Positions 5,391-43,402 of a stretch of DNA of 64,000 bases are shown piece by piece (within the stretch, counting starts at the first letter, position 1; every line of letters begins with the position of its first letter). Under the pieces are notes generated by a model that worked only from the letters and a program-made list of their open reading frames with translations, ran no database searches and had not been told where the DNA came from. The DNA lies in assembly GCA_947628825.1 (NCBI GenBank), contig CANRBH010000003.1:8084-72083 (forward strand), in the 5' to 3' direction. A program made the position numbers and the translations under genes. Source of the DNA: an uncultured Clostridia bacterium (GTDB taxonomy: Bacteria; Bacillota; Clostridia; TANB77; CAG-508).

Positions 5391-5424
5391 AAAAGAGCCA
5401 GCTGCGTTTGCAACTGGCTCTTTT
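5391..5424 (-). terminator. rho-independent terminator of the GC-rich orphan gene
   Basis: AAAAGAGCCAG-loop-CTGGCTCTTTT hairpin (stem 5395-5401/5414-5420), followed by a T-run on the minus strand. Confidence 0.7.
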
Positions 5425-5484
5425 CTTTTCTTGGCTAAAATTATAGCCTTGGGTCATTTAGGGGTTTGGAATCTGATTGATGTC

Positions 5485-6435
5485 TTAACCTTCCGTGGGA
5501 GTGTCAACGGCGGGAGCATCAACGGCAGTGGTAGTGATATCAGCGTTAGCATCGGCGTTTACGCCTACGAGATTGTCAAAGTCAATTTCGTCATCCTTCA
5601 GCTTACCTGCCGCATACATTCTTACGAGCTGCGCCATAACTTCTTTTGGAATAGCGATGGCCTTTGCCGCATCGGGTTCGCCGATGTAGATAGTATAGAC
5701 CTTATTGGTCATGTTCCCGTTCTCTTCCACAAATTCATATCCGAATTTTTCTTTAAGCAGAATCCTTTCACATTCAAGGAACTTGCCCTTCATCTCCTCA
5801 TTCTTTTTCCCGAAAATTCTGCAAGCTTCCTTGAAGTCGATGAAGATTTGGTCGTTCAAATGATACTTGCCGGTCTGCTGGCTCTTGATGAGAAAGATGT
5901 CATTTTTTTCGATTTCATGCAGAATGGCATAGTGGAGATTGGCGAAGACCTTGACAATTCGCAGGTTCATATCCATAGAATTCTCAGCGTCATACTCATT
6001 CCACTTTTCGTCATTCAACTTTTTTACGAGCCATTCGAGAGCATCGGCATCGGTCATTTTGAGGAACGAATCCACCATGGTTTCGGGAAGGCAGATTACG
6101 TATCTGATCATGGTCATCTCGTCGGTCTTCCGCTGGAGTTCATAATGTTTTTCATCCATCAGTAGGTAACGTTCCAACTCAAAGGCGTATTCGTAAAGTT
6201 CTTTCCCATAATTGCCAAAGTTTCCGCAGGTCTGGTAGAGCCACTGGAAGACGCCCTCATCGATATCATAGAACCCTTGTTGCTGAAGCTTGAAGTTGAA
6301 GTCAGTTTTTTCCATGACTTTCTCAATCTTTGAATGGAACTCCTCAAAAATCTTCACGATACTCGAAGGGGGATTTCTCATCATTTCGAGAAGTTTAAAA
6401 GATTGCGAACGAGCAGCAATTTGCATCTGAGACAT
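5485..6435 (-). CDS. GC-rich orphan protein, 316 aa, acidic Ala/Thr/Asp-rich C-terminal tail, function unknown
   Basis: Long ORF with AGGAGG 8 nt before the ATG. Codon usage (ACC, GGC, CTC, AAG, GCC) is unlike the neighbours. The line at 5521 counts 29/60 G+C, against 20/60 in an alr line. Confidence 0.75.
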   Translation of the reverse strand: MSQMQIAARSQSFKLLEMMRNPPSSIVKIFEEFHSKIEKVMEKTDFNFKLQQQGFYDIDEGVFQWLYQTCGNFGNYGKELYEYAFELERYLLMDEKHYELQRKTDEMTMIRYVICLPETMVDSFLKMTDADALEWLVKKLNDEKWNEYDAENSMDMNLRIVKVFANLHYAILHEIEKNDIFLIKSQQTGKYHLNDQIFIDFKEACRIFGKKNEEMKGKFLECERILLKEKFGYEFVEENGNMTNKVYTIYIGEPDAAKAIAIPKEVMAQLVRMYAAGKLKDDEIDFDNLVGVNADANADITTTAVDAPAVDTPTEG

Positions 6436-6529
6436 CTGTTCTTACCTCCTAAATATGTGCGGAATGTTACTACAGTAACTTTCCTTTTGTCTACGAGTTG
6501 AGTCGTATTGGCTCAGCTCACTATTTATT

Positions 6530-6558
6530 ATTATACCATACTTTACATAATTTTGCAA
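6530..6558 (-). promoter_or_regulatory. sigma-A-type promoter, TTGCAA-17 nt-TATAAT with TGG upstream of the -10
   Basis: Read on the minus strand: CTTGCAAAATTATGTAAAGTATGGTATAAT. An about 87-nt leader runs to the ATG at 6435. Confidence 0.6.
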
Positions 6559-6627
6559 GTCTTTTAAAAAATTTTATTTTTACCCTAAAAATGCGTTAAT
6601 TTTTCACTTGGCATTTCCTAAAAATAT

Positions 6628-8409
6628 TTAGCTCCTTTGTAAAATTTTTTTCATTTCTTCCTGTCTCTTAACCTTTTTAGTTGTTGTCTTAATTAGTTCT
6701 TCACTTGATAACACTAGCTTTTGGATATGTTTGTATCTTGGAAATGTTTTGTTTAGTTCTTTTATTTCATTCCAAATTATTTGATATAATTCATCTTCTG
6801 TCATTCCTTTATACTTTTCTTTTACAACTTCTTTATCATAAAATACTTCCACAGAAAGTGTAACATCATTTTTATCATTTTCATCCGGCATTCCAAAAAC
6901 CATACATTCTTCAACTAAATCTATTCTATTAACTAAAGTTTCTATTTCTTCTGGAAATACCTTTTTACCATTCTTTAAAACGATTAAATTCTTATTTCTT
7001 CCGGTAATAAATAATACACCTTTTTTATTTATATATCCTAGGTCTCCTGTATAAAACCATCCATCTTTTATAACTTCTTTAGTAAGCTCTGGCATTTCAT
7101 AATATCCAAGCATAACATTTGGACCTTTAACTGCTATCTCTCCTATTCCATTTTCATCTTGATTAACGATTTTAACTTCATTGTTAATCATTGGAACACC
7201 TACTGAACCCGGTACCATTATCTTATCATTTTCACCTGCAATAACCGGAGAAGTTTCACTTAAGCCATAACCCTGTACTGTTTTTATTCCTAAACTATTA
7301 AACCCTTTTGCAATTTTTGCATCAGCTGGTGCTCCTCCTGATACAACAAATCTAAGTTCTCCTCCTAAGGCGTCAATTATTTGTTTAAATAATGTTCTTC
7401 TAATATCAATATGTAACTTTAACAGTATATTACTAATCAAAGTTGCAACTTTGATTAACTTTGTCTTTCCTTGTTTGTCTATTTCTTTCATTATTGTTTT
7501 GTAAATTGCTTCTATTAAAACTGGAACTCCAACAAATACTGTAACTTTATATTCATTCAGATTTTGTTTTATATAACGTAAACCATCTGGAAATGTTGTT
7601 TTTGTTCCATTTGCAAGCATAAGAACCATACAAGTTGAACCAAATATATGGTGGAAAGGTAAAAATGCTATATTAGTATCTGTTGGTCTAATATCTTCTG
7701 CAACTTGCAAAGCATATATATTAGATGCAATATTTCTTTGTGAAAGCATTACTGCTTTCGATTTAGAGGTTGTTCCTGATGTAAATAATAATATGCTCAT
7801 TGCATTTTCGTCAACTTTGTAGTCAATATAATCTCTTTCTCCAATTTCTATTAGTTTTTGTCCTTTTTCCAAAAGCTCTTCCACAGAATTATATCCTTCA
7901 ATTTTACTCATACAAACATACTCTGATAAATTGGTATTTCCATTTTCCTTAATTTGTGTAACTTTGTCAGTTAGTTTTTCATCAAAAACTATTGCATTTG
8001 CTTTACTTCTAATTAGCGAACCTTCTAATTCATCATATTGTAAATCTTTATCTAATGGAACTGAGACTATACCACCTAGAAGATTAGCAAGATGTGCTAA
8101 CGCCCATTCATATCTATTTTTTCCTATTACAGCAATTCTTTTTCCTATAAGTTTCATTGAATAAAAAGCTGTCCCCAGTTTGTTTATATCATCTAAAAGT
8201 CTTTTATATGTAATGTTTTCATATTCAATTCCACTTTCTTTTTTATGTTTTATTACAAACGCAATTTTTTCTTTAAATACTTTCGCAGAATTATAGATAA
8301 TTTCTTTAACATTTTTAAACTCTTCAGCTTCAAATACTCTTCTTAGATCTTTGTCTTTTATTCTTTTTAAAAATGTAAAAGATTCTTCATCTTTTTTATT
8401 TTTACTCAT
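6628..8409 (-). CDS. AMP-dependent synthetase/ligase (long-chain fatty acid--CoA ligase-like)
   Basis: 593 aa. AMP-binding signature LFTSGTTSKSKAV, plus YTGDLGY and GRNKNLIVLKNGKKV. Confidence 0.85.
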   Translation of the reverse strand: MSKNKKDEESFTFLKRIKDKDLRRVFEAEEFKNVKEIIYNSAKVFKEKIAFVIKHKKESGIEYENITYKRLLDDINKLGTAFYSMKLIGKRIAVIGKNRYEWALAHLANLLGGIVSVPLDKDLQYDELEGSLIRSKANAIVFDEKLTDKVTQIKENGNTNLSEYVCMSKIEGYNSVEELLEKGQKLIEIGERDYIDYKVDENAMSILLFTSGTTSKSKAVMLSQRNIASNIYALQVAEDIRPTDTNIAFLPFHHIFGSTCMVLMLANGTKTTFPDGLRYIKQNLNEYKVTVFVGVPVLIEAIYKTIMKEIDKQGKTKLIKVATLISNILLKLHIDIRRTLFKQIIDALGGELRFVVSGGAPADAKIAKGFNSLGIKTVQGYGLSETSPVIAGENDKIMVPGSVGVPMINNEVKIVNQDENGIGEIAVKGPNVMLGYYEMPELTKEVIKDGWFYTGDLGYINKKGVLFITGRNKNLIVLKNGKKVFPEEIETLVNRIDLVEECMVFGMPDENDKNDVTLSVEVFYDKEVVKEKYKGMTEDELYQIIWNEIKELNKTFPRYKHIQKLVLSSEELIKTTTKKVKRQEEMKKILQRS

Positions 8410-8617
8410 AATAAATTTATTCCTTTCTTGCTAAGTAAAAAGAATATATTAAATACTCCTTACTATGATTTATATTCTATCATAAGATAAAATATTTTTC
8501 TATAAGGAGTATATCATAAATTTATTTTTTTTGCTTAGACTGATAAGTCAGTATAAAAATTACATTGTAGCATATTGTAGTCTTTATTAAAAGCTCATTA
8601 AAGCCTTTGCTAATAAA

Positions 8618-9562
8618 CTACAATAAAGAATCTATTGCATTTTTTATATTTTCCTTCATAATATCACAACTTCTATCAAACCTTTCTTGGTCTTTTTTAT
8701 TAAGTTTTAATTTTAATATGTCTTTAACACCATCTTTACTTATAATAGCTGGAACTCCAATGTAAATTCCTTCGTTACCATATTCTCCATTTTGAAAAGT
8801 CGACACTGTTAATATAGCTTTTTCATCATTTAAAATAGCTTTTATTAATCTATTTAGAGCCATACCTATTCCATAATATGTTGCTTTCTTTTTTTCTATA
8901 ATTTCGTATGCAGCATTCCACACTTTATCATGTATCATTTCCAAATCTTCCATTGGATAATTATTGTCTTCCATTATTTCAATCATTTTTTTACATCCAA
9001 CATAACAATGTTCCCATGGTACTAAAGAAGAATCTCCGTGTTCTCCTAAAATATATGCATGAACATTTTTACTTGAAACATCAAGATATTCTGCAATTAA
9101 ATATCTTAATCTTGCAGTATCTAGAACTGTTCCTGAACCAATTACCTTAGATGTTGGCATTCCTGAAACTTTTGCTACAACATATGACATTAAATCAACT
9201 GGGTTAGTTGCTATTATAAATATTCCTTTAAACCCACTTTTCATAACATTTTCAGTTATATCTTTCATTATTTTTGTATTTTCAACTGCAAGTTCTAACC
9301 TTGACTGTCCTTCTTTTTGTGCTAAACCCGCTGTAATAACTACAATACTTGCATCATTGCAATCACTATAATCTCCTGCTTTAATATCCATTTTATGTGG
9401 TGAATATGGAAGCCCATCAGATAAATCCATTTCTTCTCCAATAGTCTTATCCTTATTTATATCAATTAAAATAAGTTCTTCCACAGTTCCTTGATTAAGT
9501 AATGAATATGCCAAACTTGTTCCAACAAATCCAGCTCCTACAATAACAATTTTTCTTTTCAT
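8618..9562 (-). CDS. ldh: L-lactate dehydrogenase
   Basis: 314 aa. IVGAGFVGTS Rossmann motif, ITAGLAQKEGQSRLEL, and GEHGDS with the catalytic His. Confidence 0.9.
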   Translation of the reverse strand: MKRKIVIVGAGFVGTSLAYSLLNQGTVEELILIDINKDKTIGEEMDLSDGLPYSPHKMDIKAGDYSDCNDASIVVITAGLAQKEGQSRLELAVENTKIMKDITENVMKSGFKGIFIIATNPVDLMSYVVAKVSGMPTSKVIGSGTVLDTARLRYLIAEYLDVSSKNVHAYILGEHGDSSLVPWEHCYVGCKKMIEIMEDNNYPMEDLEMIHDKVWNAAYEIIEKKKATYYGIGMALNRLIKAILNDEKAILTVSTFQNGEYGNEGIYIGVPAIISKDGVKDILKLKLNKKDQERFDRSCDIMKENIKNAIDSLL

Positions 9563-9752
9563 TTTCTACCTTCTGTTAATATTAAAAATTAACAATCCTC
9601 CTCTCTTTTTTTATAGTATACCACTTTTATAAAATTTTAGACTATTAATTAATCTATTTCAAATAATATTTTTTTATATTATATTTTTATATGCAAAAAT
9701 TATTTTTAATGATATAATTGCTTTGTAATATTTTTATTAGGAGGAAATATAT

Positions 9753-22507: not shown

Positions 22508-22515
22508 TCCTTTCC

Positions 22516-28619: not shown

Positions 28620-28643
28620 AATATCTCCTTTCTTTTAACATTT

Positions 28644-29090: not shown

Positions 29091-29094
29091 TTTA

Positions 29095-30652: not shown

Positions 30653-30722
30653 ATTTTTTCCCTCCTTAGTAAAATTTGTGTTATATATATATTTATTATA
30701 ATAAATATAACCTAAAATTAAA

Positions 30723-31118: not shown

Positions 31119-31160
31119 TTTTTACTCCTTTTCTTAGGTTTACATACGTTGTCCTTTCGT

Positions 31161-31856: not shown

Positions 31857-31871
31857 TGTTTTCCTCCATTT

Positions 31872-33545
31872 CTAATATGTTCTTAGATTACCTTCTATTG
31901 ATATTATAATATCATTTCCACTTTTTTGTCCTTCTGTTGATGCTATATCTTCCAAAACATTAGCATTTTTTAATTTTGCTTTAAAGTAAGCTAGTTGCTC
32001 ATACTTTTCAGATTTAACACTTAGTACTATATGTTGCTTTATATTTTCTCCATCTGTTATTTCAGTATTATCGATAGATACTAATTCAACCAATTGTGGT
32101 ATACTATATACAATTTTATTTAATAAAGTAGTAATTTGATTTTTTCTACTATTTCTTTCAACGATTACTGAGCTAATATTATTTAAATTTGAAGTATATC
32201 TTTGATAATCTATTGTTCTTCCAGTTATCTTACTATCATCAGAGTTTACTTTTGAAAGTTCTCCAGAAATATAATCTCTTACATCATCTGCTTCTGCAAT
32301 TTTGCTATCAATCTGTTTTACTAAAAAGTTAGATCCTATAGAATATACTATTATGATAACAAAAACAGTCAAAATATTTCTTAAAAGAAGTTTTTCAGCC
32401 CAATCGAATTTTCCCTTCATATCTGTCTTAAAATTTATGTTTAGCTTAAAGTTTTTCTTAGCTTTTGGACCATTAGATACCTTCTTATCTTTTAAAGAAT
32501 TTACATCAGAAGTCAAGAAGCTTTTTAAATTTTCTTTCCAATCCACTTGTAAAAAGTTTAATGCTTTTATTCCGTTTCCAAGTCCTTGCAAAGCAAGCGC
32601 TATTGCGGAGTCCACTTCAACATAATCTTTTATATTTATGTTCATATTCATTTGTTGTTCTAAGAAGAAAGGTTTTAAAATTTCAACCTTTGAATCTTTA
32701 AAATATTCTTTAAAATACAAGTCTATATTGTTGATAACTGCACCCATTCCTGTTATATAAATATTATCAATCTTATTATATAAATCTTTTAATACTTGTA
32801 GCTTTTCAGTTATTTTATACAATACAGGAACAATAAACTTTAAATATTCATTTTCTTCCATAGAGCTATAGTCTGTTTCCATGGTGTATATTGTCGTATT
32901 TTTACACACTTCATAAGATTTTGAATAAGAATTTTCTTTTTCATTTATCTTATCTAGAACTTCACTCATTCCTTCTTCTATTGTATCAACACTATATATT
33001 GCTTGATTAACAATTGTTGTTACTGTTGTTTTATCTTCTATGTTTATTATCATAGAGTTTTTATTTTTTTCTACATTTATAAGGTTTGGAATGGCCGTTG
33101 CTAAAGGTGTAAGTAATTCTAATCTTTTTTTACCAAAAAACATTTGTCTTTCTGCTATGTCATTTTGGCTATCATAAACGTATATAACTTTACTTTGGTC
33201 AGGATTATCTATATTTTTTGTATATACATACTTACCTTCATATACGCTACTATTTAAATGATTTTCTGTACAAAAAGATTCAAATTCGGTTTTTATAGCT
33301 TTTGTTGCATAAGCCTTATTAGTCAAACTGAAAATATTAAAATAATAATATTTTTCATTAGATAAATTGCTACTGATAGGAATATTTTCACTATTTGTTT
33401 CTGTAACAATTTGATCAAGTGTTTCCATCAAGTCGTTATAGAATTTTATTCCATACGACTCAACGACAAAAGTATTATTGTCTTTTTTCACTTTAGCATA
33501 TCTAATTAGCTTATCTGTTATATCAACTCCTAAACACTCTTGCAT
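31872..33545 (-). CDS. PilM (actin-like ATPase fold) fused to a PilN-like TM/C-terminal domain
   Basis: 557 aa. N-terminus LGVDITDKLIRYAKV and IYITGMGAVINNIDLYFKEYF..VEILKPFF are PilM-like. The TM helix LLRNILTVFVIIIVYSIGSNFLV at about aa 395 is followed by about 140 more aa. Confidence 0.7.
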   Translation of the reverse strand: MQECLGVDITDKLIRYAKVKKDNNTFVVESYGIKFYNDLMETLDQIVTETNSENIPISSNLSNEKYYYFNIFSLTNKAYATKAIKTEFESFCTENHLNSSVYEGKYVYTKNIDNPDQSKVIYVYDSQNDIAERQMFFGKKRLELLTPLATAIPNLINVEKNKNSMIINIEDKTTVTTIVNQAIYSVDTIEEGMSEVLDKINEKENSYSKSYEVCKNTTIYTMETDYSSMEENEYLKFIVPVLYKITEKLQVLKDLYNKIDNIYITGMGAVINNIDLYFKEYFKDSKVEILKPFFLEQQMNMNINIKDYVEVDSAIALALQGLGNGIKALNFLQVDWKENLKSFLTSDVNSLKDKKVSNGPKAKKNFKLNINFKTDMKGKFDWAEKLLLRNILTVFVIIIVYSIGSNFLVKQIDSKIAEADDVRDYISGELSKVNSDDSKITGRTIDYQRYTSNLNNISSVIVERNSRKNQITTLLNKIVYSIPQLVELVSIDNTEITDGENIKQHIVLSVKSEKYEQLAYFKAKLKNANVLEDIASTEGQKSGNDIIISIEGNLRTY

Positions 33546-33802
33546 TTTTTCCTCTTTCTTCTATTGTTCTTTATATTTCTACAATTTTCTCTAGTTTATT
33601 TTATCTTTACATTATTTATATACATTATTTTATATTTTTTTAAATTAAAGTCAATACATTTTTGCTTAATGAAAACAAAATGTAATATTTGTAATTTTAT
33701 TGATATATTATATTTTTTACTAAATAAAATCATAAAAATATATAACTCTTATTATGTCCTAATTTCGACTTAATATGAGTTATATTGATTTTAAATTTAT
33801 TT

Positions 33803-34957
33803 TTAATAGTCTCGTTCCTTTTCTTCTTGTTTTAAATCTATATTATATGTTAAATTTTCAACAACATCATAAGTTTTTCCCAGATGATTTATTGTTTCTA
33901 ATTCTTTTTGTGTTAATTTTGATTGTACTTCTTTTGATTTTTGAGTTTTTATTTTTCCTATGATTATTGAAAATGTATAATCATCTTCAACTTGCTTTAT
34001 TGCATTTGGATTTATTTCTATTGCTAAATTTACATATTGAATTGCTTTATTTAAGTCTTTTTTTATAATTTGTATTTTTGCTAAATATAAATATCCATTT
34101 GCTTGTATTTTTTCGTCTTCACAATTTATACATTCATAAAAATATTTTTCGGCTTCATCATATTCTCTAAAAATTAAATAAATTTGTCCTAAATTTAAAT
34201 TTGAAATATCTTTTAGTGAATTTATTGTTGCTGCTTTTTTATAATATTCTCTAGCATTTTGAAAATCATTTAACATAGTATATGTCATTCCTAGAAAATA
34301 ATACAATTCATATTCTGCTGGTGAATATTTTAGAGCTTCATTATAAACAACTATTGCTTCCTTATATCTTTCATTATCATATAGTATGTTTCCTAATAAT
34401 TTACTTGCTTTATAAAATTCTGGCTTTGTGCTTAATAAATTTTGTAAAAGTTGTATGCTTTCTTCTTCTTTTTTATTTTCATGAAGAATTTCTGCTAATT
34501 TGCAATATGTGTCATAATCCTTTGGATTAATATTTATTACTTTTAAATATTCACCTTCTGCTTTTTCTTTTTCTTCATTTTCTTCATATAATTTTGCAAG
34601 CATTTTATGAGATGTATAACTATTAGGTCGTCTTTCAATATTTAGTAAAAGCTTTTTCTTTAATTCATTTTTATTATTTTTAGATCTTGCTATATTAATT
34701 ATTTCATCTAAGTAAATATTTTTCTTTTCTAATATTAAAAATAGTACTGGTATTATTACTGAAACTAAGTATATGAAGCTTAATATTAATAAATTAGGAC
34801 TTTTCTTTATGAATATAAATATAAAATCAATAATTATACCAATAAATTCAAGTGATAATAAATATACATATCCAGAATTATTTTCTTTTATTAGTTTTGC
34901 AAACGTATATATAAATGTAGAAATCACTAATATACTAAAAATTATGATTTGTACCAT
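33803..34957 (-). CDS. membrane-anchored TPR-repeat protein, first gene of the pilus cluster
   Basis: 384 aa. Three N-terminal TM helices, then repeated TPR-like A..Y....L..NP... units (AEGEYLKVININPKD, AIVVYNEALKYSPAE, AREYYKKAATINS). Confidence 0.7.
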   Translation of the reverse strand: MVQIIIFSILVISTFIYTFAKLIKENNSGYVYLLSLEFIGIIIDFIFIFIKKSPNLLILSFIYLVSVIIPVLFLILEKKNIYLDEIINIARSKNNKNELKKKLLLNIERRPNSYTSHKMLAKLYEENEEKEKAEGEYLKVININPKDYDTYCKLAEILHENKKEEESIQLLQNLLSTKPEFYKASKLLGNILYDNERYKEAIVVYNEALKYSPAEYELYYFLGMTYTMLNDFQNAREYYKKAATINSLKDISNLNLGQIYLIFREYDEAEKYFYECINCEDEKIQANGYLYLAKIQIIKKDLNKAIQYVNLAIEINPNAIKQVEDDYTFSIIIGKIKTQKSKEVQSKLTQKELETINHLGKTYDVVENLTYNIDLKQEEKERDY

Positions 34958-35090
34958 ATAAAACTTCTTTCCTTATATAATTTACTTTATTTTACTATAG
35001 CTATGTTTTTTTTTCAATATTTTTTGAAAATATAAATCGCTGTCTCTTTGTCGAAATTTTAGATTTCGCCTCAACGACTATATTAGCTAC

Positions 35091-35126
35091 AAAAAAGGAA
35101 AAGAAAAAATTTTCTCTTCCTTTTTT
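35091..35126 (-). terminator. terminator of the 83-aa GC-rich gene
   Basis: GGAAGAGAAAATTTTTTCTTTTCC hairpin (one mismatch) followed by TTTTTTG on the minus strand. Confidence 0.5.
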
Positions 35127-35134
35127 GTTTTGGG

Positions 35135-35386
35135 TTAACCGGATTTTTCAACCGCTTCAACTTCGATGAGCTTTGCATGCATAACCTCAGCGATAATCGC
35201 AATGAATTCGTATTTTTCAACGGTCTTGTTTTTGATTGTGATAAAAACAAGTGAAGTCATACGCTCATCATTGGGAATATCAACCTTAACGGTTGCATCC
35301 ATCTTACCCGTAAGCAAGTTGACAAGCTTTTCGAAGCTTTCTGCGGTTTCCCGGTCAATCACCTTAAATGTGTAGGTATAGTCCAC
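35135..35386 (-). CDS. GC-rich orphan protein, 83 aa, GTG start, function unknown
   Basis: ORF track. AAAGGGGGG 7 nt upstream of the GTG. The line at 35281 counts 26/60 G+C. Codon usage is unlike the neighbours. Confidence 0.6.
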   Translation of the reverse strand: MDYTYTFKVIDRETAESFEKLVNLLTGKMDATVKVDIPNDERMTSLVFITIKNKTVEKYEFIAIIAEVMHAKLIEVEAVEKSG

Positions 35387-35416
35387 ATTTAGGCCCCCCT
35401 TTCAAAAATTTTCTTC

Positions 35417-35445
35417 ATTATATTATTATTTATTGCTTTAGTCAA
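35417..35445 (-). promoter_or_regulatory. sigma-A-type promoter, TTGACT-17 nt-TATAAT
   Basis: Read on the minus strand: TTGACTaaagcaataaataataaTATAAT, about 30 nt upstream of the GTG. Confidence 0.55.
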
Positions 35446-35627
35446 GTATTTTTACCTTTTTAAATTATGATTTATCTTAAAAAATTGTATTTATTTTTTA
35501 CTTGATCTCTTTTTAATTACATATTTTTCTTTTTTAGATTAATTTTATTATCTTTGGAGATTCTAAATAGAAGAATTATATAGCACATTTTATCGTTTAT
35601 TCCTTAAAAATTGTTTTGTTGTAGTTT

Positions 35628-35639
35628 ATCGTCAACGAT
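35628..35639. promoter_or_regulatory. candidate operator palindrome ATCGTcaACGAT upstream of the tandem HTH genes
   Basis: A perfect 5+5 palindrome about 55 nt before the ATG at 35692, with a TATCGT half-site at 35591-35596. Confidence 0.3.
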
Positions 35640-35691
35640 TTTTAAGTAGCTTTGCTATACTTTCATAAAATTTTAGAAATGAGGTAATATT

Positions 35692-35958
35692 ATGACACTT
35701 TCAAATGCAGTAAAGCAAAGGATAATTAACTTAGCAGCACAGGAAAAAATTACTATTCATAAATTAGCTTTAAAATCTGGTACAGCTTATTCTACAATTA
35801 GTAGTTTTTTAAATGGTAAATGTACCAGCATAACATTAACTACTCTTTTACACATATGTGAAGGATGTAAAATAACTTTAAAGGATTTTTTCAATGATAA
35901 ATTATTTAAGGATGTTACTCTAGATTCCGCTGAAAAGAAGCCTATAGAAAAGAGGTAA
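35692..35958 (+). CDS. XRE/Cro-type helix-turn-helix protein (paralog 1)
   Basis: 88 aa. IINLAAQEKITIHKLALKSGTAYSTISSFLNG is a typical HTH_3 pattern. Confidence 0.7.
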   Translation: MTLSNAVKQRIINLAAQEKITIHKLALKSGTAYSTISSFLNGKCTSITLTTLLHICEGCKITLKDFFNDKLFKDVTLDSAEKKPIEKR

Positions 35959-35963
35959 ACTTA

Positions 35964-36224
35964 ATGTTACTTTCAGTTGCTATTAGACAAAGGATTATAA
36001 ATTTAACAAAATCTGAACATATTAGCTTAAGAGAATTATCAAGAAGATCTAATGTCTCATATTCAACTTTAATTAATTTTATGACTGGAAAAGGAAGTAC
36101 AATTACTTTAGCTACTTTGTATAAATTATGTCTAGGTTTAAATTTAGAATTAGTTGATTTCTTTAACAATTCACTATTTATTGATGTTATTGATGAACAT
36201 GAAAAAAGGTCATCTAAATTTTAA
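35964..36224 (+). CDS. XRE/Cro-type helix-turn-helix protein (paralog 2)
   Basis: 86 aa. Collinear with paralog 1 (IINLTKSEHISLRELSRRSNVSYSTLINFMTG...LATLYKLCLGLNLELVDFFN). Confidence 0.7.
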   Translation: MLLSVAIRQRIINLTKSEHISLRELSRRSNVSYSTLINFMTGKGSTITLATLYKLCLGLNLELVDFFNNSLFIDVIDEHEKRSSKF

Positions 36225-36504
36225 AATTGATAATTTTTCTTTAGCTTTTTAATTATGCATGTATATTGCTTAATTTTGGCAATTATCTAATTTGTTTCAA
36301 TTATTCTAGTTTATAATTTATGTTTCTATCTCTCTTTGCTTTTATAGAATTTTTCTATATTTATTATTAAAAAGTATTTTTAATTTTCTTACTTTATGAT
36401 AAAATTAAAATTGGAAAATATCTTTCCAATTTATTTTTTAGTAAAACTTTTGCATAAAATTAGAAAGGAGAAATTCGTATAAATATTATACGAATATAAT
36501 AGAA

Positions 36505-37005
36505 ATGAAATTAAATATTGTATTGGTTGAACCAGAAATCCCTCAAAACACTGGAAATATTGCCAGGACTTGTGCGGCTATTGGAGCTAAACTTCATCTT
36601 GTATATCCCCTTGGTTTTAGTATCTCTGAAAAAGCCGTTAAAAGAGCTGGTCTTGATTATTGGGATAAACTTGAAATAGAAGAACATATTTCTTTAGAAA
36701 AGTTTTTAGAAAAATATCCTCCAGAAAAAAACAATATGTTCTTCTCTACAACAAAAGGAAAGCATATTTATTCTGAACCCGATTATGGTTCAATGGATGA
36801 AATATTTATTCTTTTTGGAAAAGAAACCAAAGGTCTTCCTGAAGATTTACTTCTAAAATATATAAACAAAACCATAAGAATTCCTATGAGAGAAAGTTTA
36901 CGTTCTCTTAACCTTGCAAATTCTGTTTGTGTTGTTGCCTATGATGTCTTTAGGCAATGCAATTTCTTTGGTTTGGAAGAAATCAGCTCATATTTTGATA
37001 AATAA
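36505..37005 (+). CDS. trmL: tRNA (cytidine/uridine-2'-O)-methyltransferase TrmL (SpoU family)
   Basis: 166 aa. LVEPEIPQNTGNIARTCAA and the C-terminal SLNLANSV motif. Confidence 0.8.
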   Translation: MKLNIVLVEPEIPQNTGNIARTCAAIGAKLHLVYPLGFSISEKAVKRAGLDYWDKLEIEEHISLEKFLEKYPPEKNNMFFSTTKGKHIYSEPDYGSMDEIFILFGKETKGLPEDLLLKYINKTIRIPMRESLRSLNLANSVCVVAYDVFRQCNFFGLEEISSYFDK

Positions 37006-37066
37006 TATAAATTTTAAGTGTAGAGCAATGATTTAAAATCAATATGTTCTACACTTTTTTAGTTTT

Positions 37067-38203
37067 TTATAATATTGCTCCTAAAACTAGAATTCCTAAA
37101 TTGTCTTTATATATTTCATCAAATTGAGATATTGGCAAAGGGTTCTCTCCCATTCCTACTTCTATTGTATAACCGGGTCTATTGTAATTTTGTATAAACC
37201 AATCTTTGTATCCCGCAAAACTTGAATTATATGGTGTGTCTTCTAGCGAATATCCACTTACTTCCGCTAGTTTCTCTCCTATTTCTAATGCTTGTGGTGG
37301 ATTGTAATTTTGAAATCTCCAATAAATTGTTTTGCCCTGAGAATGGTATGCTAGTATAAGTCTAAAATCATGTCTTAAAGTAAAATTATATACAGCTATT
37401 GATTCTGGTTCTGTTAAAGGTGCTAATCCTACAAAGTCTCTTGGAGCTGGTCTTGTATATCCTTGTGAATATTTTATTGCTTTAGCATTTTGCCAAAGTG
37501 CAGGAAATTGTAAATTTAAATCCACACCTCTAATATTTGCTTTCCATCCTGAAGTAAATGGAATTTGTGGAAAATAGCTTGCTATTTCTTTTGCAAAATT
37601 ATAAATTTCACTGTTAGGAACAATTTCTCCTGTAACTAAGTCTACCCCATCTGGATTTACCATTGGTACAATATAAATAGATGTGTTTTTATAAAGTATA
37701 TTTGCAGATACACCATATATATTTAAATTATTTTTGTAAGCATAGCAATAATCTGCTAAAAATTTCATAAGTACAACAGATGTTATCCACTCGTTGGCAT
37801 GATACGATGCAGAATAAAAAACCTTCTTATTCCCTTCCCCTATTTTTATATAAGGTATATCTTTTCCTAAAATGCTTTTTCCTATCGTTCCTATTTCAAG
37901 AAATGGATAAAGAACTTTTAAAGAATTTAAGTTTATGTTTAATATACTTGAACTATAACTTATATTAGTTGGAACAATAAAATTTAATGCACCATTTATG
38001 TATGGACTAAGTGCATTTCACGTATTAGGACCAACAATACCATCTGCTATTAATCCAAAATTTTTTTGAAAATATAATACTGAATTGTAAGTATTTCTTC
38101 CAAAAATACCATCAATCTCCCCATTATAAAATCCTAGTTTTTGTAATAAATTTTGTAAAAATTCTACCATAGGGCCGGTAGAGCCTATTTTTAAAGTTTT
38201 CAT
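37067..38203 (-). pseudogene. M14 zinc carboxypeptidase (gamma-D-Glu-diamino acid endopeptidase-like) with an N-terminal peptidoglycan-binding domain, interrupted by one in-frame TGA
   Basis: ORFs 38018..38260 (PG_binding_1: [30 protein letters not shown]) and 37067..37768 are in the same frame. The frame is open between them (NALSPYING...[13 protein letters not shown], carrying the HxxE zinc motif). The only interruption is the TGA at 38018-38020. Confidence 0.7.
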
Positions 38204-38278
38204 ATTATAATGTATGTTATTCTTATTGTAGATGATACTTTTATTTTTATAAATAACCAAAATTTTTTACTAAAGTAG

Positions 38279-38308
38279 TTGACAAAACTGTTAAATTAGT
38301 ATTATAAT
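38279..38308 (+). promoter_or_regulatory. tRNA-Leu promoter, TTGACA-18 nt-TATAAT
   Basis: Consensus hexamers about 20 nt upstream of the first GCAGATATGG copy. Confidence 0.6.
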
Positions 38309-38328
38309 AAGTATTGTCGTTGATACAC

Positions 38329-38410
38329 GCAGATATGGCGGAACTTGCTGAGGCTGTTCGAACGTAGTGAGTTACAGCCTCAGTATGTGTAGCTAGATAT
38401 GTTATTTTAT
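38329..38410 (+). repeat. 82-nt unit made of a 17-nt copy of the tRNA-Leu 5' end plus a GC-rich 10-bp hairpin, directly preceding the tRNA
   Basis: GCAGATATGGCGGAACT occurs at 38329-38345 and again at 38411-38427. Hairpin CTGAGGCTGT (38348-57) / ACAGCCTCAG (38374-83). Confidence 0.6.
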
Positions 38411-38498
38411 GCAGATATGGCGGAACTGGTAGACGCACAGGACTTAAAATCCTGCGGACTAATAATCCGTCCCGGTTCGATTCCGGGTATCTGCACCA
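38411..38498 (+). tRNA. tRNA-Leu (anticodon TAA), type II with a long variable arm, CCA encoded
   Basis: Manual fold: GCAGATA TG GCGG..CGC A CAGGA CTTAAAA TCCTG CGGACTAATAATCCGT CCCGG TTCGATT CCGGG TATCTGC A CCA. Confidence 0.95.
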
Positions 38499-38882
38499 CT
38501 AGAACACCAAGTATTTTGAGAAATCAGAACTTGGTGTTTTAATTTTAAAATAGCGCAAAGTTCTAACACTTTTTCAAAGTATGAATTTTTTTTAAGTTAA
38601 AAATGTATTTTTTGAAACAGATTACCTGACTTGCTACTTCGGTAATTTGTTCTTTTTTATATTTAATGCTAATGCGTTACTAATTACATTTGCAGAATTA
38701 GATGATAAACCTGTATGGATGATTTTAATATGATAAGGTATTAAGGATTACGATTAACAAATTTACGCATATATCCTCATTGATGAAGCAGATGCTAAAA
38801 AAAAATGATATACAAATTATAAAGTTAAATAATGGTGGGTTTATAGGAATTGAATAAAATAAATAAAAATTTAATAAATCAT

Positions 38883-38911
38883 TTGACTTTTTCACTTATT
38901 TTGAGTATAAT
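38883..38911 (+). promoter_or_regulatory. promoter of the candidate antisense (antitoxin) RNA, TTGACT-17 nt-TATAAT
   Basis: Exact hexamers and spacing. Part of the left arm of the inverted repeat. Confidence 0.55.
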
Positions 38912-38917
38912 AATTAT

Positions 38918-39012
38918 AGAAAGATGAGATACCACAGAAATGTGGCGTATCGTTTGATTAATATTTTAAATTAAAATACATCTCTAACGATCCAACAGAG
39001 ATGTGTTTTTTT
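38918..39012 (+). ncRNA. candidate cis-antisense sRNA (type I antitoxin-like), about 95 nt
   Basis: Runs from about 7 nt after the -10 to the bidirectional terminator ACATCTCT-loop-AGAGATGT (38978-39004) plus its T-run. Overlaps the last 9 sense codons plus the stop codon and the 3' UTR of the convergent small ORF. Confidence 0.5.
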
Positions 39013-39136
39013 CATTGTCTAATTTTCTTACTGTAACAACTAGAGCTACAAATAAGGCAATAGCGACAACGGTTACTATTGCAAGTTCAATAAATAATAT
39101 GTATATAAAAAATAAGTAGACTTGTTCTAATAACAT
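38984..39136 (-). CDS. 50-aa hydrophobic peptide, type I toxin-like
   Basis: Manual translation: MLLEQVYLFFIYILFIELAIVTVVAIALFVALVVTVRKLDNEKNTSLLDR. AGGAGG 8 nt upstream. One TM helix plus a charged tail. Below the ORF-track cutoff. Confidence 0.55.
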   Translation of the reverse strand: MLLEQVYLFFIYILFIELAIVTVVAIALFVALVVTVRKLDNEKNTSLLDR

Positions 39137-39200
39137 ATGCATCGCCTCCTCTCAAGTAGGATACGATACACCACATTCTGTTTCTCTCATCTAGTTATAG

Positions 39201-39229
39201 ATTATACTTTATTAATAGATAAAAATCAA
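39201..39229 (-). promoter_or_regulatory. promoter of the toxin-like mRNA, TTGATT-17 nt-TATAAT
   Basis: Read on the minus strand. Part of the right arm of the inverted repeat. An about 55-nt leader runs to the ATG at 39136. Confidence 0.55.
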
Positions 39230-39516
39230 TAATTTTTTTACTAAAAAGCAAAAAAATGTTCTATTATATTTTATGTCTAAAAATATTATCAAAAATTCTA
39301 ACAGATAAACATTTTTTTTATCAATGATAAGTTAGACTGTTTTTCTAATAAAATTTCTAACATTTAATTTAAATTTTTAGAAAAGCAGTTTTTTATGTTT
39401 TAGTTGCAGATTTATCAAGATTTATAGCTTTATACTATTATGGTATAGCTGAATTAGTGCATATTAAACATTGATAAAAATTGTTATTCAATAGCAAAAA
39501 TAGAGAGAATAAAATT

Positions 39517-39572
39517 CTTAAAATCCTGCGGACTAATAATCCGTCCCGGTTCGATTCCAGGTATCTGCACCA
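39517..39572 (+). repeat. 56-nt direct repeat of the tRNA-Leu 3' portion (anticodon loop to CCA), att-like
   Basis: 55/56 identical to 38443-38498, with a single G-to-A difference at 39559. Confidence 0.9.
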
Positions 39573-39576
39573 AAAT

Positions 39577-39613
39577 ATCAGGTTAGAAATCAAATTTCTA
39601 ACCTGATATTTTT
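39577..39613. terminator. bidirectional terminator (perfect 14-bp stem)
   Basis: ATCAGGTTAGAAAT-caa-ATTTCTAACCTGAT followed by ATTTTT. It lies 3' of the tRNA fragment on the plus strand and 3' of the IMPase gene on the minus strand. Confidence 0.7.
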
Positions 39614-39683
39614 GAATTTTCAGAATCTTTGATATTATGTAGAACTTAGTATATGTTGTTGCGATTATATATTTATCCATAAT

Positions 39684-40466
39684 TTAATCTTTAATAATAT
39701 TTTTTTTAATTATATTAATAACTTCATCATGTACTTTTCCATTGCTTATTATTGCACCATTTATACTTTGGTCATATCTTTGTTCATTTCCAAATAAATC
39801 CGTTACCTTTCCACCAGCCTCTTCAACAATAACTTTTACTGCTGCAATATCACAGTGTTTATGTTCTGTTCCCGTAAAAATTGTTAAAGTATAATCTCCA
39901 GTAGCAACTAAACAACCTGCTCTTGTAATACTTCCAATATCATTTAAGCGAGTTTTCTTTCTTAATTCTTCAAATACTTTGCAAACATTATATTCTGCCT
40001 TAGACCACATATCACAATGACCTACTGCTCTAATATCATCTAAATTATAATCATTCACAGAAATTTTTTCATTATTTTTATAAGCTCCTTTTCCTTTAAT
40101 AGCTGTATATAAACTATCTGTAAAAGGATCATAAACTACTCCAACTTTTGGGACACCATCAATTACTAATGCCAAAGAAAATACTGCTACTGGTATATGT
40201 CTAGCATACATAGCTGTTCCATCAACTGGATCACATACCCATACAAGATTACTTATACCAAATTGTTCTTCTTCGCCATCTACACTATGCTCCGGATATT
40301 TTTCCTTTACTTTTTTAATTAAATATGAATTAATTTCTGTATCAGCATTAGTTACAATTGTTTTATCTCCTTTATAACTAGCACCATTATTTTGATTAAA
40401 GTATTTAATCATTATTCTACCTGCTTGATATGCAATATCTTTTGCAAATTCTAAATACTCTTCCAT
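39684..40466 (-). CDS. inositol monophosphatase family protein
   Basis: 260 aa. WVCDPVDGT motif and overall IMPase-like pattern. Confidence 0.85.
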   Translation of the reverse strand: MEEYLEFAKDIAYQAGRIMIKYFNQNNGASYKGDKTIVTNADTEINSYLIKKVKEKYPEHSVDGEEEQFGISNLVWVCDPVDGTAMYARHIPVAVFSLALVIDGVPKVGVVYDPFTDSLYTAIKGKGAYKNNEKISVNDYNLDDIRAVGHCDMWSKAEYNVCKVFEELRKKTRLNDIGSITRAGCLVATGDYTLTIFTGTEHKHCDIAAVKVIVEEAGGKVTDLFGNEQRYDQSINGAIISNGKVHDEVINIIKKNIIKD

Positions 40467-40563
40467 TTATAATCTTCACTCCTTAATTTTGCTACTAGTA
40501 TTTCTGCTTTTTTATAAGTTATTGAATGTTCTCCCATTACATTTTTTCAGTAGTTCCATATTT

Positions 40564-40592
40564 ATTATAGAATTTTTAAGAGATGGTGTCAA
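40564..40592 (-). promoter_or_regulatory. promoter of the IMPase gene, TTGACA-17 nt-TATAAT
   Basis: Consensus hexamers read on the minus strand, with an about 90-nt leader. Confidence 0.55.
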
Positions 40593-40617
40593 CAGATAGT
40601 AACTTAAAAAAAGACTG

Positions 40618-40675
40618 TCTGTACCATTAGAGCACCAAATGTTTTGAGAAATCGGAAACTTGGTGTTTTAATTTA
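40618..40675 (+). repeat. third, degenerate copy of the tRNA-Leu 3' tip plus its downstream terminator
   Basis: TCTGTACCA followed by ttagagcaccaaatgttttgagaaatcggaaacttggtgttttaattta, compared with TCTGCACCA followed by ctagaacaccaagtattttgagaaatcagaacttggtgttttaatttta at 38490-38547. Confidence 0.7.
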
Positions 40676-41006
40676 CGAGTAAATTTGGTGAATAATATTT
40701 CAAAAAATATATTATTGTGTTTGAATTAAAAATAATAGATTGCCAAGGTGCAAAAATATATGTTAGGAGATGTTCTCTATGAGAATTAAATCATGGATAA
40801 TAAGAAAGTTAGAAAAATGACTTCCAAGTATTTTTGCTGTTCAGGACATGGAAATGTAATAATCTTAGTTGAATAAAATCTTATGTTAAAAAGGAATATA
40901 CAAAAAAAATATTAAGTTAACATAAAGTTAAAATAATTTTACTAAAAATTGCAAAAACATCAAATATATGCTATAATATAAAGTGTTTTGTTAATTGAGG
41001 TGGATT

Positions 41007-42782
41007 ATGAAAAAAGTAAAAAATGAATCACTAAAAAGTGTTTTAAAAAAATTATATAAGATATTAACTAAAAGACAAAAAATATCTTTTCTAATAATTG
41101 TACTTATTATGATTATATCTGCAGGACTAACACAAATTACACCTAAAGCTATTGGATGGCTAACAGATGATATTTTGACACAAAGCGAAATAGCTTTTTC
41201 TAAAGTTATACCATTTTTAATTTTAATTTTGGTTGTAAATGTTGTAAATGAGGTCATAAAAATTGCTAGAAGAGTTATGGTAGAAGATACTGCAACAAGA
41301 ACAGAAAAACAAGCAAGAGGAATGGTAATAAAATCTTTGCTTATGGCTCCCCTATCTTATTTTAGAGAAAATATGACAGGAAACATACACGGAAGAATGA
41401 ATAGATGCTTAGAAGGAACTGTAAAATTAGAGAAATTGCTATTTATGGATTTTGCACCAGCCATTTTTAATAGTATTGCTGCTATTATAACAATATTTAT
41501 TACCTTGCCATTTATACTTGCATTACCAATGATGTTAGTAATACCAATTGGAATCTTTATAGTTTTTAAACAAATAAATAGTCAAAAAGGAATTAGAGTA
41601 GAACTTTTAGAAAGTAAATCACAAATGGATGGTACTATTGTTGAACTAATAAATGGTATTGAAGTTATAAGAATTAGTGATAGCGTAGATTTTGAAACTA
41701 CTAGATTTGATAATAAATCAGAGTTTTTAAGAAAAAAAGAAATGAAGCATCATAAAGCAATGGCACTATATGACTGTTTAAAATTTGTAAATCAAGCTTT
41801 TTTTACGGTATTGATAATTGGAATTTCAACTTATTTAGCAACTAAAAATATAATATCTGTTGGAGCAGTATTAACAGCATATCTATGTTTCAATCAGTTA
41901 ATAAAACCTCTAGAGGAATTACATAGAATATTTGATGAATTATCTGAATGTACTGTTTTAGCAACAGATTTCTTTAAAATGGTGGAAATTCCTAATGATT
42001 TTTCTTATAGTGAAATATCAAATAAAAAAGAAAAAATAGATATAGAACCAGTTGTACAAATTAAAGATTTAATGTTCTATTATAATGAAGATAAGGACAA
42101 AATAATTTTAGACAACTTTAATCTATCAATAGATAGAGGAATGTTTTTAGGAATAGCTGGTCCAAGTGGTTGTGGAAAATCATCTTTAATTAAAGCTATA
42201 TGTAAATTAGAAAAAGGATATGGATCTATAATATTAGATTCAAGAGATATAACCTCATTAAATAGAAAAGATATTTCTGAAATAATTGCTTTAGTACCAC
42301 AAAACCCTTTCTTAATAGCAGGTACTATATATGAAAATATATGTTATGGAATTGATAGAGAAGTTTCAATAGAAGAAGTAGAGGAAGCTGCTAAGAAAGC
42401 ATATATTTATGATTATATAAATGAATTACCAGATAAATTTGATTCTATAATATCAGAAGGTGGAAACAATTTATCAGGTGGACAAAGACAAAGAATAGCA
42501 ATTGCTAGAATATTTTTAAGAAAACCTAAAATATTAATATTAGATGAAGCAACATCAGCTTTGGATAATACATCAGAAAAACATATTCAAACAGAAATAG
42601 AAAAATTACAAAAAGAAAATAATACTACTATTATATCAATTGCACACAGGCTAACTACTTTGAAAAACTGTGATAAAATTATAGTTTTAAATAAGGGAAA
42701 AATTGAAGAAGATGGAAAGTATGATGAATTGATTGAAAAAGGTGGAATATTTAGTGACATGTATTACGGAAAATTAAAATAA
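41007..42782 (+). CDS. ABC exporter, fused permease plus ATPase (MsbA/type I exporter-like), no N-terminal peptidase domain
   Basis: Start trimmed to the ATG at 41007 (GAGGTGG upstream). GPSGCGKSS, LSGGQRQRIAIAR and ILILDEATSALD motifs. Confidence 0.85.
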   Translation: MKKVKNESLKSVLKKLYKILTKRQKISFLIIVLIMIISAGLTQITPKAIGWLTDDILTQSEIAFSKVIPFLILILVVNVVNEVIKIARRVMVEDTATRTEKQARGMVIKSLLMAPLSYFRENMTGNIHGRMNRCLEGTVKLEKLLFMDFAPAIFNSIAAIITIFITLPFILALPMMLVIPIGIFIVFKQINSQKGIRVELLESKSQMDGTIVELINGIEVIRISDSVDFETTRFDNKSEFLRKKEMKHHKAMALYDCLKFVNQAFFTVLIIGISTYLATKNIISVGAVLTAYLCFNQLIKPLEELHRIFDELSECTVLATDFFKMVEIPNDFSYSEISNKKEKIDIEPVVQIKDLMFYYNEDKDKIILDNFNLSIDRGMFLGIAGPSGCGKSSLIKAICKLEKGYGSIILDSRDITSLNRKDISEIIALVPQNPFLIAGTIYENICYGIDREVSIEEVEEAAKKAYIYDYINELPDKFDSIISEGGNNLSGGQRQRIAIARIFLRKPKILILDEATSALDNTSEKHIQTEIEKLQKENNTTIISIAHRLTTLKNCDKIIVLNKGKIEEDGKYDELIEKGGIFSDMYYGKLK

Positions 42783-42871
42783 TATATTACCTTTGAAATA
42801 AAAAAATAACGCTATTTTAAGGATTTTAAGATAGTGTTATTTTTTATAGAAAATTTAAAATTTGAATAGTC

Positions 42872-42900
42872 TTGCAATATTATGTAAATTGTGGTATAAT
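42872..42900 (+). promoter_or_regulatory. sigma-A-type promoter, TTGCAA-17 nt-TATAAT with TGG upstream of the -10
   Basis: CTTGCAATATTATGTAAATTGTGGTATAAT is 27/30 identical to the promoter at 6530-6559 read on the minus strand. Confidence 0.65.
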
Positions 42901-42986
42901 TAAAAATGATGAATCGTTTTACTCCGTTTCATCATTCGGAAGCAACAACATTGGGATGCGTGATTACGCAGGGAGGAGATCAAATC

Positions 42987-43358
42987 ATGAATAGACTTGC
43001 TGGTTTAATCGCAAACGGAACCATCACTGTCGAGGAGCTTGCTAACGCACAGGATTTGATTGAACGTGCGAAGTTGGTTACTCAAGGGCTTGAAGCCTGC
43101 AAAAAAACGCTTGCTTTCCCGCTTGGAGTCAAGGAAATCAACTGTTATTCCTATATCGATTCCGCTGGAGAGTATGAAGCTTGGGGGCAATGCACAATCG
43201 ATGGTATCTTCACCTGTTACTGCAACTGGGGTGGAAACCATGTGATCGGCAGATGCAACCTTGCAAATTTTGCAGAAGTTTTCACGGCTTTTGACAACGA
43301 CGAGTTTGCATCTGACTTGCAGAGGTTCCTGCTTCAGCAGATAAAAAAAGCAAGTTGA
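42987..43358 (+). CDS. GC-rich orphan protein, 123 aa, six Cys in the central 56 aa, function unknown
   Basis: Start placed at the ATG at 42987 (GGGAGGAG 8 nt upstream), which makes the upstream 27 codons of the track ORF leader sequence. The line at 43141 counts 28/60 G+C. Confidence 0.65.
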   Translation: MNRLAGLIANGTITVEELANAQDLIERAKLVTQGLEACKKTLAFPLGVKEINCYSYIDSAGEYEAWGQCTIDGIFTCYCNWGGNHVIGRCNLANFAEVFTAFDNDEFASDLQRFLLQQIKKAS

Positions 43359-43366
43359 GCTTCGTA

Positions 43367-43402
43367 GAGTAACCCACGGTATAACAACCGTGGGTTTACT
43401 CT
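43367..43402. terminator. GC-rich terminator shared by convergent genes
   Basis: GAGTAACCCACGG-tataacaa-CCGTGGGTTTACTC, followed by TATTTATTT. Confidence 0.75.

Follow-up and report, generated by a model that had tools for sequence, protein, structure and literature searches.

Integron cassettes consist of a promoterless open reading frame (ORF) with an attC site at its end, stand in arrays beside intI and are moved by the integrase; many of their ORFs are orphans, and their composition is variable. A phage moron is a single gene that carries its own promoter and terminator and has a G+C content unlike that of its surroundings (the Juhala/Hendrix concept; PMC3594210). Putative mobile promoters, or promoter reuse, are highly similar promoters found upstream of non-homologous genes (PMC3575422), while GC-biased gene conversion, or selection on G+C, has been described as G+C shifts of a few percent across core genes (PMC4450053, PMC2936529). 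In this work we analyse three GC-rich single-gene units, P1, P2 and P3, in a 64,000-nucleotide (nt) stretch of DNA (the window, whose positions serve as coordinates throughout) from an uncultured Clostridia bacterium (TANB77; CAG-508; contig CANRBH010000003.1). Our results favour, with a probability of about 0.5, a reading in which these units are accessory genes that resemble morons, are expressed autonomously and probably co-regulated, belong to a class found across the lineage and have a maintained high G+C.

The three units resemble phage morons in that they are single-gene units with their own predicted promoter and terminator, a deviant G+C and an accessory gene. Unlike morons, they lie between chromosomal housekeeping genes, outside any prophage; P2 and P3 are conserved in place in sister species and are not 'more DNA'; the composition is apparently maintained, and many units share one promoter class. 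As in promoter reuse, near-identical promoters precede non-homologous genes within and across genomes, but here the likeness extends over only about 29 nt and is that of a class consensus with an operator-like element, as opposed to a longer segment that has been propagated; it also goes with genes of a particular composition, and no transposable carrier was seen. Integron cassettes are likewise single-gene units with unrelated, often orphan ORFs, whereas the units described here have their own promoters and are dispersed, with no attC site or neighbouring integrase found. Each of these three concepts fails at least one defining feature. GC-biased conversion provides a parallel for a raised G+C at third codon positions (GC3) in often-recombining genes, which against AT-biased mutation yields a stationary GC-rich composition; the difference is that GC3 is here about three times the genome value, and in isolated single genes.

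The whole-window G+C is 27.6%. In 300-nt windows it rises to 40% at 5311-6571, 35% at 35041-35461 and 38% at 42811-43521, and 60-nt windows at the three loci range from 0.35 to 0.53. GC3 is 0.56, 0.46 and 0.48 for P1, P2 and P3, respectively, compared with 0.146 ± 0.029 for 43 host ORFs of the window, a difference of more than 10 standard deviations. The preliminary description of this DNA had noted a G+C shift at these loci, which is thus upheld both by the windowed calculation and by codon-position GC3. First codon positions (GC1) are raised as well, and the combined shift of GC1 and second positions (GC2) gives the proteins a foreign-looking amino-acid composition. Filtering the ORFs by GC3 yielded no further genuine gene with this signature in the window, the remaining ORFs that passed being located inside the three loci or overlapping longer low-GC3 ORFs in another frame. 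The untranslated regions of the three units have a G+C of 0.37-0.49, except for the P2 3' end (0.26), compared with 0.13-0.24 in the adjoining intergenic DNA. Since these regions are GC-rich too, the anomaly spans the transcript and not the codons alone. The units are composed as follows, SD denoting the Shine-Dalgarno sequence.

6530..6558, minus strand: P1 promoter, TTGCAA, 17 nt, TATAAT, with a TATG extended -10 and the TTATGTAAA spacer element.
6436..6529, minus strand: P1 leader, about 87 nt transcribed, 38% G+C, two hairpins, AGGAGG SD.
5485..6435, minus strand: P1 ORF, 316 amino acids (aa), ATG start, acidic (isoelectric point 4.8), GC3 0.56.
5388..5427, minus strand: P1 intrinsic terminator, an 18-bp stem followed by a T run.
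35417..35445, minus strand: P2 promoter, TTGACT, 17 nt, TATAAT, lacking the TGTAAA element; conserved in loci L116 and L117 of relatives.
35135..35386, minus strand: P2 ORF, 83 aa, GTG start, GGGGGG SD, GC3 0.46.
35089..35128, minus strand: P2 terminator hairpin, 19-nt arms, 95% complementary.
42872..42900, plus strand: P3 promoter, TTGCAA, 17 nt, TATAAT, with a TGTG extended -10 and the TTATGTAAA element; 28/29 identical in locus L133 of a relative.
42901..42986, plus strand: P3 leader, 41% G+C, with a small hairpin, GCGUG-AU-UACGC, abutting the SD.
42987..43358, plus strand: P3 ORF, 123 aa, ATG start, SD GGGAGGAG, GC3 0.48.
43371..43396, plus strand: P3 terminator, a 10-bp stem with 6 G-C pairs.

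All three loci thus show the architecture initially described: a single ORF preceded by an SD and a sigma-A promoter of 17-nt spacing and followed by a terminator. The leader hairpins are also there, but in folding energy they do not surpass shuffled sequence (z -0.8 to -1.05), and an Rfam scan, whose only matches were two tRNAs, revealed no riboswitch or leader family in the leaders. The three proteins share no similarity with one another, and no hit above noise was obtained for any of them in scans against Pfam, PHROGs, NCBIfam and PADLOC. The units have as neighbours alr and genes for an AMP-binding ligase, LDH, a TPR protein, SpoU and an ABC exporter, and genes for phage structure or replication are absent among these neighbours. 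A search with the ABC exporter retrieved uncultured Clostridia metagenome-assembled genomes, many of them from rabbit gut ('Lapin'), and Clostridium sp. CAG:354, all with about 24-30% G+C. The strain of the window itself was seen only in ENA ERZ27249662, in Logan ERR10663778, ERR10663780 and ERR10663781, and in the NCBI record. Two trivial origins of the GC-rich islands can be dismissed: an assembly chimera, as the junctions are identical in the ENA, Logan and NCBI assemblies and in the sister species, and non-coding RNAs, given the long ORFs, the SDs and a ratio of nonsynonymous to synonymous substitutions per site (dN/dS) of 0.1-0.2 for P2 and P3.

Two of the three units are not recent insertions. 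P2 has three homologues (67-77% identity). Over 3-5 kb, L116 and L117 are 85-88% identical to the window at the nt level, and they carry P2 at the same site, between a helix-turn-helix (HTH) gene pair and the TPR gene, with the promoter, GTG start and terminator as in the window and a GC3 of 0.44-0.45. Between these loci and the window, P2 shows a dN of 0.09-0.18 and a dS of 0.9-1.0 (dN/dS about 0.1-0.2), compared with a dN of 0.003-0.06 and a dS of 0.2-0.75 for the genes that flank it. P2 is a real gene under purifying selection, evolving about twice as fast as its neighbours. The closest P3 homologue (82% aa identity) is found on L133 and L134, each from an independent sample, that of L133 being also the source of L117. 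There the P3 cassette and the downstream gene are syntenic, window positions 42866-43718 aligning at 84-86.5% nt identity; dN is 0.10 and dS 0.65 for P3, with a dS of 0.30 for the flanking gene. Overall, P2 (L116/L117) and P3 (L133/L134) thus occupy the same sites in sister species at 84-88% nt identity and were in place before the split from these species. The preliminary description had proposed that the same genes at the same sites with the same composition in relatives would speak against its insertion model, and this is what we observe for two of the three units. Beside P2, at 35692-36224, the HTH pair consists of two tandem paralogous Cro/C1-type HTH_26 genes of 88 and 86 aa (about 47% identical), which are divergent from P2 and are kept next to it in relatives.

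The P3 family is the best sampled of the three, with about 80 clusters of 55-82% identity, all of them unnamed. Its alignment reveals invariant Cys residues and an NWGG-H motif, and the GCGUG-AU-UACGC hairpin is kept, with compensating changes, in four of seven family members. P3 homologues come from seven lineages, all hosts of 25-30% G+C, with differing housekeeping neighbourhoods. In all seven lineages GC3 is 0.31-0.48, while pairwise dS is saturated for nearly all pairs. This is difficult to reconcile with the view that the three genes are ordinary recent acquisitions, phage morons for example, from donors of about 40-50% G+C, slowly ameliorating in their host and with a near-consensus sigma-A promoter that was imported or evolved locally: a recent un-ameliorated transfer does not fit a family that is synonymously saturated yet GC-rich, and P2 and P3 are older than the split from the sister species. 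Furthermore, no homologue was found in a GC-rich context, and no relative was detected among GenBank phages (searched with all three proteins), PLSDB plasmids or IMG/VR (both searched with P1 and P3).

Recent transfer followed by amelioration would also leave a drift towards the host composition dominated by GC-to-AT changes, which is not what we found for P2 and P3. Polarised synonymous changes are 14 AT-to-GC and 11 GC-to-AT in P2, and 14 and 6, respectively, in P3 (28 vs 17 in total), so that AT-to-GC changes are as frequent as the reverse; these counts are from small samples and were obtained by parsimony, which is biased at such divergence, and we therefore fitted a two-state likelihood model to synonymous third positions with a free root composition. 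For P3 the fit puts the equilibrium GC3 at about 0.30-0.40 and rejects 0.14, the host value (likelihood ratio test statistic, LRT, 8.1-9.5). The joint fit of P2 and P3 gives an LRT of 9.1-10.7 (p about 0.001-0.0025), with p about 0.001-0.004 across tests. These results suggest that the GC-rich composition is held up, or that the genes are often re-imported. High expression was considered as a cause of the high GC3 and ruled out by the ribosomal protein genes of relatives, whose GC3 is 0.05-0.14. Recent acquisition would account for other properties of the units, namely the foreign-looking shift of GC1 and GC2, a dS and dN about twice those of neighbours, such as AT-biased mutation would produce in a GC-rich gene, the location of sites 2 and 3 on either side of a tRNA-Leu gene with duplicated 3' fragments and island-like insertions, and the presence of the promoter pattern described below in viral contigs of 46-54% G+C and on an AT-rich viral contig where it drives a GC-rich orphan. 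On balance we regard it as unlikely.

The P1 and P3 promoters are identical at 26 of 29 positions, and the 30-mer promoter occurs exactly twice in the window, upstream of P1 and P3, where shuffled sequences predict no copy. The similarity noted in the preliminary description is therefore real; the common cassette ancestry that it seemed to imply does not follow, because promoters of unrelated genes in other species equal or exceed it (27/29 for L040, 26/29 for one ABC exporter promoter), and promoters in viral contigs match at 23-25/29. The likeness between P1 and P3 is that of a class consensus and no proof of a shared cassette ancestor. Nor is there one promoter for the whole set, P2 lacking the TGTAAA element. 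The class has the form TTGnnn, about 2 nt, TTATGTAAA, about 2-3 nt, TRTG, n, TATAAT; in other words, 5 nt separate the -35 hexamer from TGTAAA, which is the complement of a -35-like TTTACA, and a Firmicute TRTG extended -10 follows. It precedes unrelated GC-rich ORFs in L012/L013 (330 aa), L044 (292 aa), L046/L061 (185 aa), L008 (82 aa), L040 (63 aa) and L057 (212 aa), as well as the P3 homologues of L106, L114, L115 and L118, and no Pfam domain was found in any GC-rich orphan tested. It also precedes the AT-rich ABC exporter gene in 24 of 61 related species.

We determined the frequency of this promoter class in 72 related loci (1.02 Mb), obtained with the ABC exporter as bait and not picked for GC-rich genes. 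Of 13 GC-rich ORFs, 7 have it upstream, and three of the other six look like non-genes; of 931 AT-rich ORFs, 27 have it, 18 of these 27 being the bait itself, which leaves about 1% for ordinary ORFs. The class is genuinely tied to GC-rich orphans. In unbiased related sequence GC-rich units occur at about 10 per Mb, or about 1% of genes, and the three units in 64 kb are therefore somewhat above expectation. Promoter-gene-terminator units with unrelated, domain-less GC-rich ORFs do recur across the lineage, in support of the preliminary description.

Within the class promoter, the TTATGTAAA/TTTACATAA element is fixed in the spacers of P1, P3, the ABC exporter and many orphans across species, as expected for a common regulon. 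In the P3 family this 9-mer is found in either orientation, and in ABC exporter promoters it is less variable across species than the -35 hexamer. Such a fixed, inversion-tolerant spacer element is most simply read as a putative protein-binding site. Upstream of the ABC exporter in L012/L013/L014 (about 9930-9960) lies a near-perfect palindrome, TTTACAT-TTT-ATGTAAA, one arm of which is the -35; this arrangement suggests a dimeric binding protein. To our knowledge, none of the operator consensus sequences of CcpA, WalR, CopY/BlaI, DnaA, TnrA and others fits TTATGTAAA. The fixed element being the putative target of one shared factor, co-regulation of P1 and P3 is probable, as is, judging from their promoters, strong expression.

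The exact 29-nt pattern was also found in 10 IMG/VR contigs, six of which have 46-54% G+C, where so AT-rich a sequence is unlikely to occur by chance. In L128, an IMG/VR contig of 30% G+C, a class promoter (9427-9455, minus strand) drives a GC-rich 209-aa orphan with a GC3 of 0.44; this unit lies at the viral contig end and adjoins a serine recombinase, and in the hairpin of its leader GGAGG pairs with CCUCC just 5' of the real SD. Two other loci with class promoters have particular features. At L057 17522-18978, two GC-rich genes are adjacent, an HNH endonuclease gene (220 aa) and then the 212-aa ORF behind the class promoter, which is preceded by an inverted TTTACATAA...TTATGTAAA pair. At L044 5261-5664, the stretch directly 5' of the promoter of the GC-rich orphan consists of 2.4 repeats (95% matches) of a GC-rich 169-nt unit, which has no Rfam match.

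The preliminary description had proposed that the three units are cassettes that insert by an unknown mechanism. Inspection of the three units revealed no terminal inverted repeat, target-site duplication, attC-like site or common 3' site, and no recombinase, transposase or integrase gene is present among their neighbours. The units are dispersed rather than arrayed, and the only sequence repeated among them is the 30-nt promoter, in two copies. Overall, we find only partial support for the cassette interpretation. A clean presence/absence difference between close relatives concerns the AT-rich gene upstream of P3:

40927..42865, plus strand: ABC exporter unit, promoter 40949-40977, end of the 595-aa ORF at 42782, terminator hairpin 42801-42845.

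In the upstream flank of L133/L134, the sequence corresponding to about 40927 of the window is followed at once by that of about 42860, the entire ABC exporter unit being missing. The true indel at site 3 is therefore this unit, a clean 1.9-kb presence/absence that excludes P3. The second block of similarity formerly reported at 42801-42822 as a cassette feature is one arm of the ABC exporter terminator hairpin, and it does not stand beside P3 in relatives. In other species, the ABC exporter gene is 91% identical at the nt level in wholly different neighbourhoods; it behaves as a relocating single-gene unit. Homology of this unit across species begins at the -35 and ends at the stop codon, and the only indel boundary seen has a microhomology of at most 6-7 nt, which is AT-rich.

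Units are also gained, lost or replaced between close relatives elsewhere, which agrees with what was first supposed: besides site 3, in L012/L013, where genomes 89-96% identical carry 330-aa orphans that are only 46% identical and differ in position, and in L044/L045, where an AT-rich membrane ORF of L045 occupies the slot that the orphan has in L044. These divergent homologues and this replacement show that horizontal exchange does happen. Together with the clean indel of the ABC exporter unit and its unrelated contexts elsewhere, with the near-identical promoters before unrelated ORFs in different species, with a class promoter that is about 50 times more frequent before GC-rich orphans than before ordinary genes, and with the L128 unit next to a serine recombinase, they could be taken to mean that one family of mobile cassettes, of which the promoter is a part, inserts in intergenic or terminator regions by a dedicated mechanism. 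Such a family is quite improbable, given units with no terminal inverted repeats, target duplications or att-like sites and no recombinase or transposase near them, the fixation of P2 and P3 in place in sister species, and the lack of the promoter at P2 and at about a third of the GC-rich orphans; the homology of the ABC unit from the -35 to the stop codon is the pattern of functional constraint rather than of element ends, and the AT-rich microhomology of at most 6-7 nt is all that its boundary offers.

The region between sites 2 and 3 has features of its own. The 3' part of the tRNA-Leu gene is duplicated (38443-38498 vs 39517-39572 at 98%; 38490-38547 vs 40618-40675 at 76%), and a duplicate of a 5' fragment is present at 38329-38354. 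In L133 the tRNA-Leu 3' end continues straight into sequence resembling window positions 40678-40758, and therefore about 2.1 kb of the window (within 38411-40675, including an inositol monophosphatase gene) looks like one or more islands integrated at tRNA-Leu. Another indel in the tRNA-Leu-proximal region separates L133 from the window: only 83 nt of the window, 40759-40841, correspond to L133 166-728, which carries a 121-aa AAA_18/AAA_33 gene and a 71-aa ORF.

The properties of the proteins give few indications of function. No P1 homologue was found among about 15 billion proteins or in a 5.8-billion-cluster index; a full HMMER pass over 1.84 billion representatives returned P1 itself and one weak, spurious repeat protein, a sequence search of the PDB gave no match, and an exact-protein look-up led only to the same strain. 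Gene order around site 1 is unshared by the relatives reached via alr (at most 68% aa identity in metagenomes, about 75% in one genome locus) or the ABC exporter. The AlphaFold2 model of P3 built with the family alignment has a mean predicted local distance difference test score (pLDDT) of 94.8, the single-sequence model being poor. A Foldseek search of this model against PDB and BFVD gave nothing at E <= 0.001, with best template-modelling (TM) scores of about 0.3-0.4, and a P3 profile search of the PDB found no match; the predicted fold of P3 is apparently new. Directly 3' of P3, at 43409-44954, lie a family-less 192-aa ORF and a 285-aa Endonuclease_NS_2 (non-specific DNA/RNA endonuclease) gene, which could form a toxin/immunity-type pair.

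The preliminary description had also raised the idea that the three proteins act together. The probable co-regulation of P1 and P3, which use the same promoter class, agrees with this idea; P3 homologues, however, are widespread, and P1 has none. With about 80 clusters for P3, no homologue for P1 and three for P2, P3 functions without P1 or P2, the P2 promoter differs, there is no mutual protein similarity, and the recovery of all three proteins from the same few samples merely reflects one genome. A single functional system with unlinked, co-expressed genes is consequently very improbable. A role of the units in conflict with phages or competitors is weakly suggested by their fast evolution, acidity and variable slots, by the Endonuclease_NS_2 neighbour and the tRNA-Leu hotspot, and by AbiE/Imm33 elsewhere.

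We propose that the three loci hold accessory genes that are unrelated and transcribed independently, in the chromosome of a very AT-rich gut Clostridia bacterium. Each unit would be moron-like, pairing a single ORF with a strong sigma-A promoter and a terminator of its own, along with a leader and a strong SD, and would belong to a lineage-wide class, about 1% of genes, that is GC-rich over the whole transcript, has no known domain and, where this can be measured, evolves at about twice the rate of neighbouring genes under purifying selection. The units would not be copies of one transposing cassette; the upstream likeness of P1 and P3 would stem from one promoter class (a -35, then after 5 nt TGTAAA, or else its complement at a shifted spacer position, and TRTG-n-TATAAT). 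Their high G+C would be a maintained property, with an equilibrium GC3 of about 0.3-0.4, and not the fading trace of a transfer. Selection acting on the RNA, GC-biased conversion in genes that recombine often, or repeated re-import may be the cause.

Several points weigh against this proposal. As L012/L013 and L044/L045 show horizontal exchange, part of what we call maintenance may be repeated import, and P1, which has no relative or sister-species locus, could be a recent import. The likelihood test uses 48-76 sites per gene and a two-state homogeneous model that assumes vertical descent; the three-taxon fit of P2 alone gives an LRT of 1.4 and is underpowered for separating the models. A dS increased about 2-fold is also expected from the neutral decay of a GC-rich gene under AT-biased mutation. 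The association of the motif with high G+C was counted in loci around two genes, where orthologous pairs are non-independent, and comes down to about five independent GC-rich families with the motif and three without. Finally, promoter strength, co-regulation and the binding factor are all deduced from sequence.

A more far-reaching proposal is that these dispersed, fast-evolving, domain-less genes, whose transcripts are held at about 40-45% G+C in a 27% genome by RNA selection or GC-biased conversion, which share one dedicated promoter/operator and which are exchanged as units, constitute an undescribed, compositionally marked conflict or accessory regulon. We put it forward tentatively and consider it somewhat unlikely as it stands.

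In conclusion, a composition that deviates from the host is routinely read as recent transfer, and here two of three such genes predate a species split, while the best-sampled family, P3, is GC-rich after complete synonymous turnover in genomes where ribosomal protein GC3 is near 0.1. This is a practical warning for island-finding tools that rely on G+C. If these observations hold true in complete genomes, gene-specific forces can hold composition far from the genomic equilibrium, and the promoter motif would be a possible handle for finding such genes. A little-known gut lineage would then offer highly expressed orphan proteins, one of them with an apparently new fold, as candidates for roles in conflict with phages or competitors.

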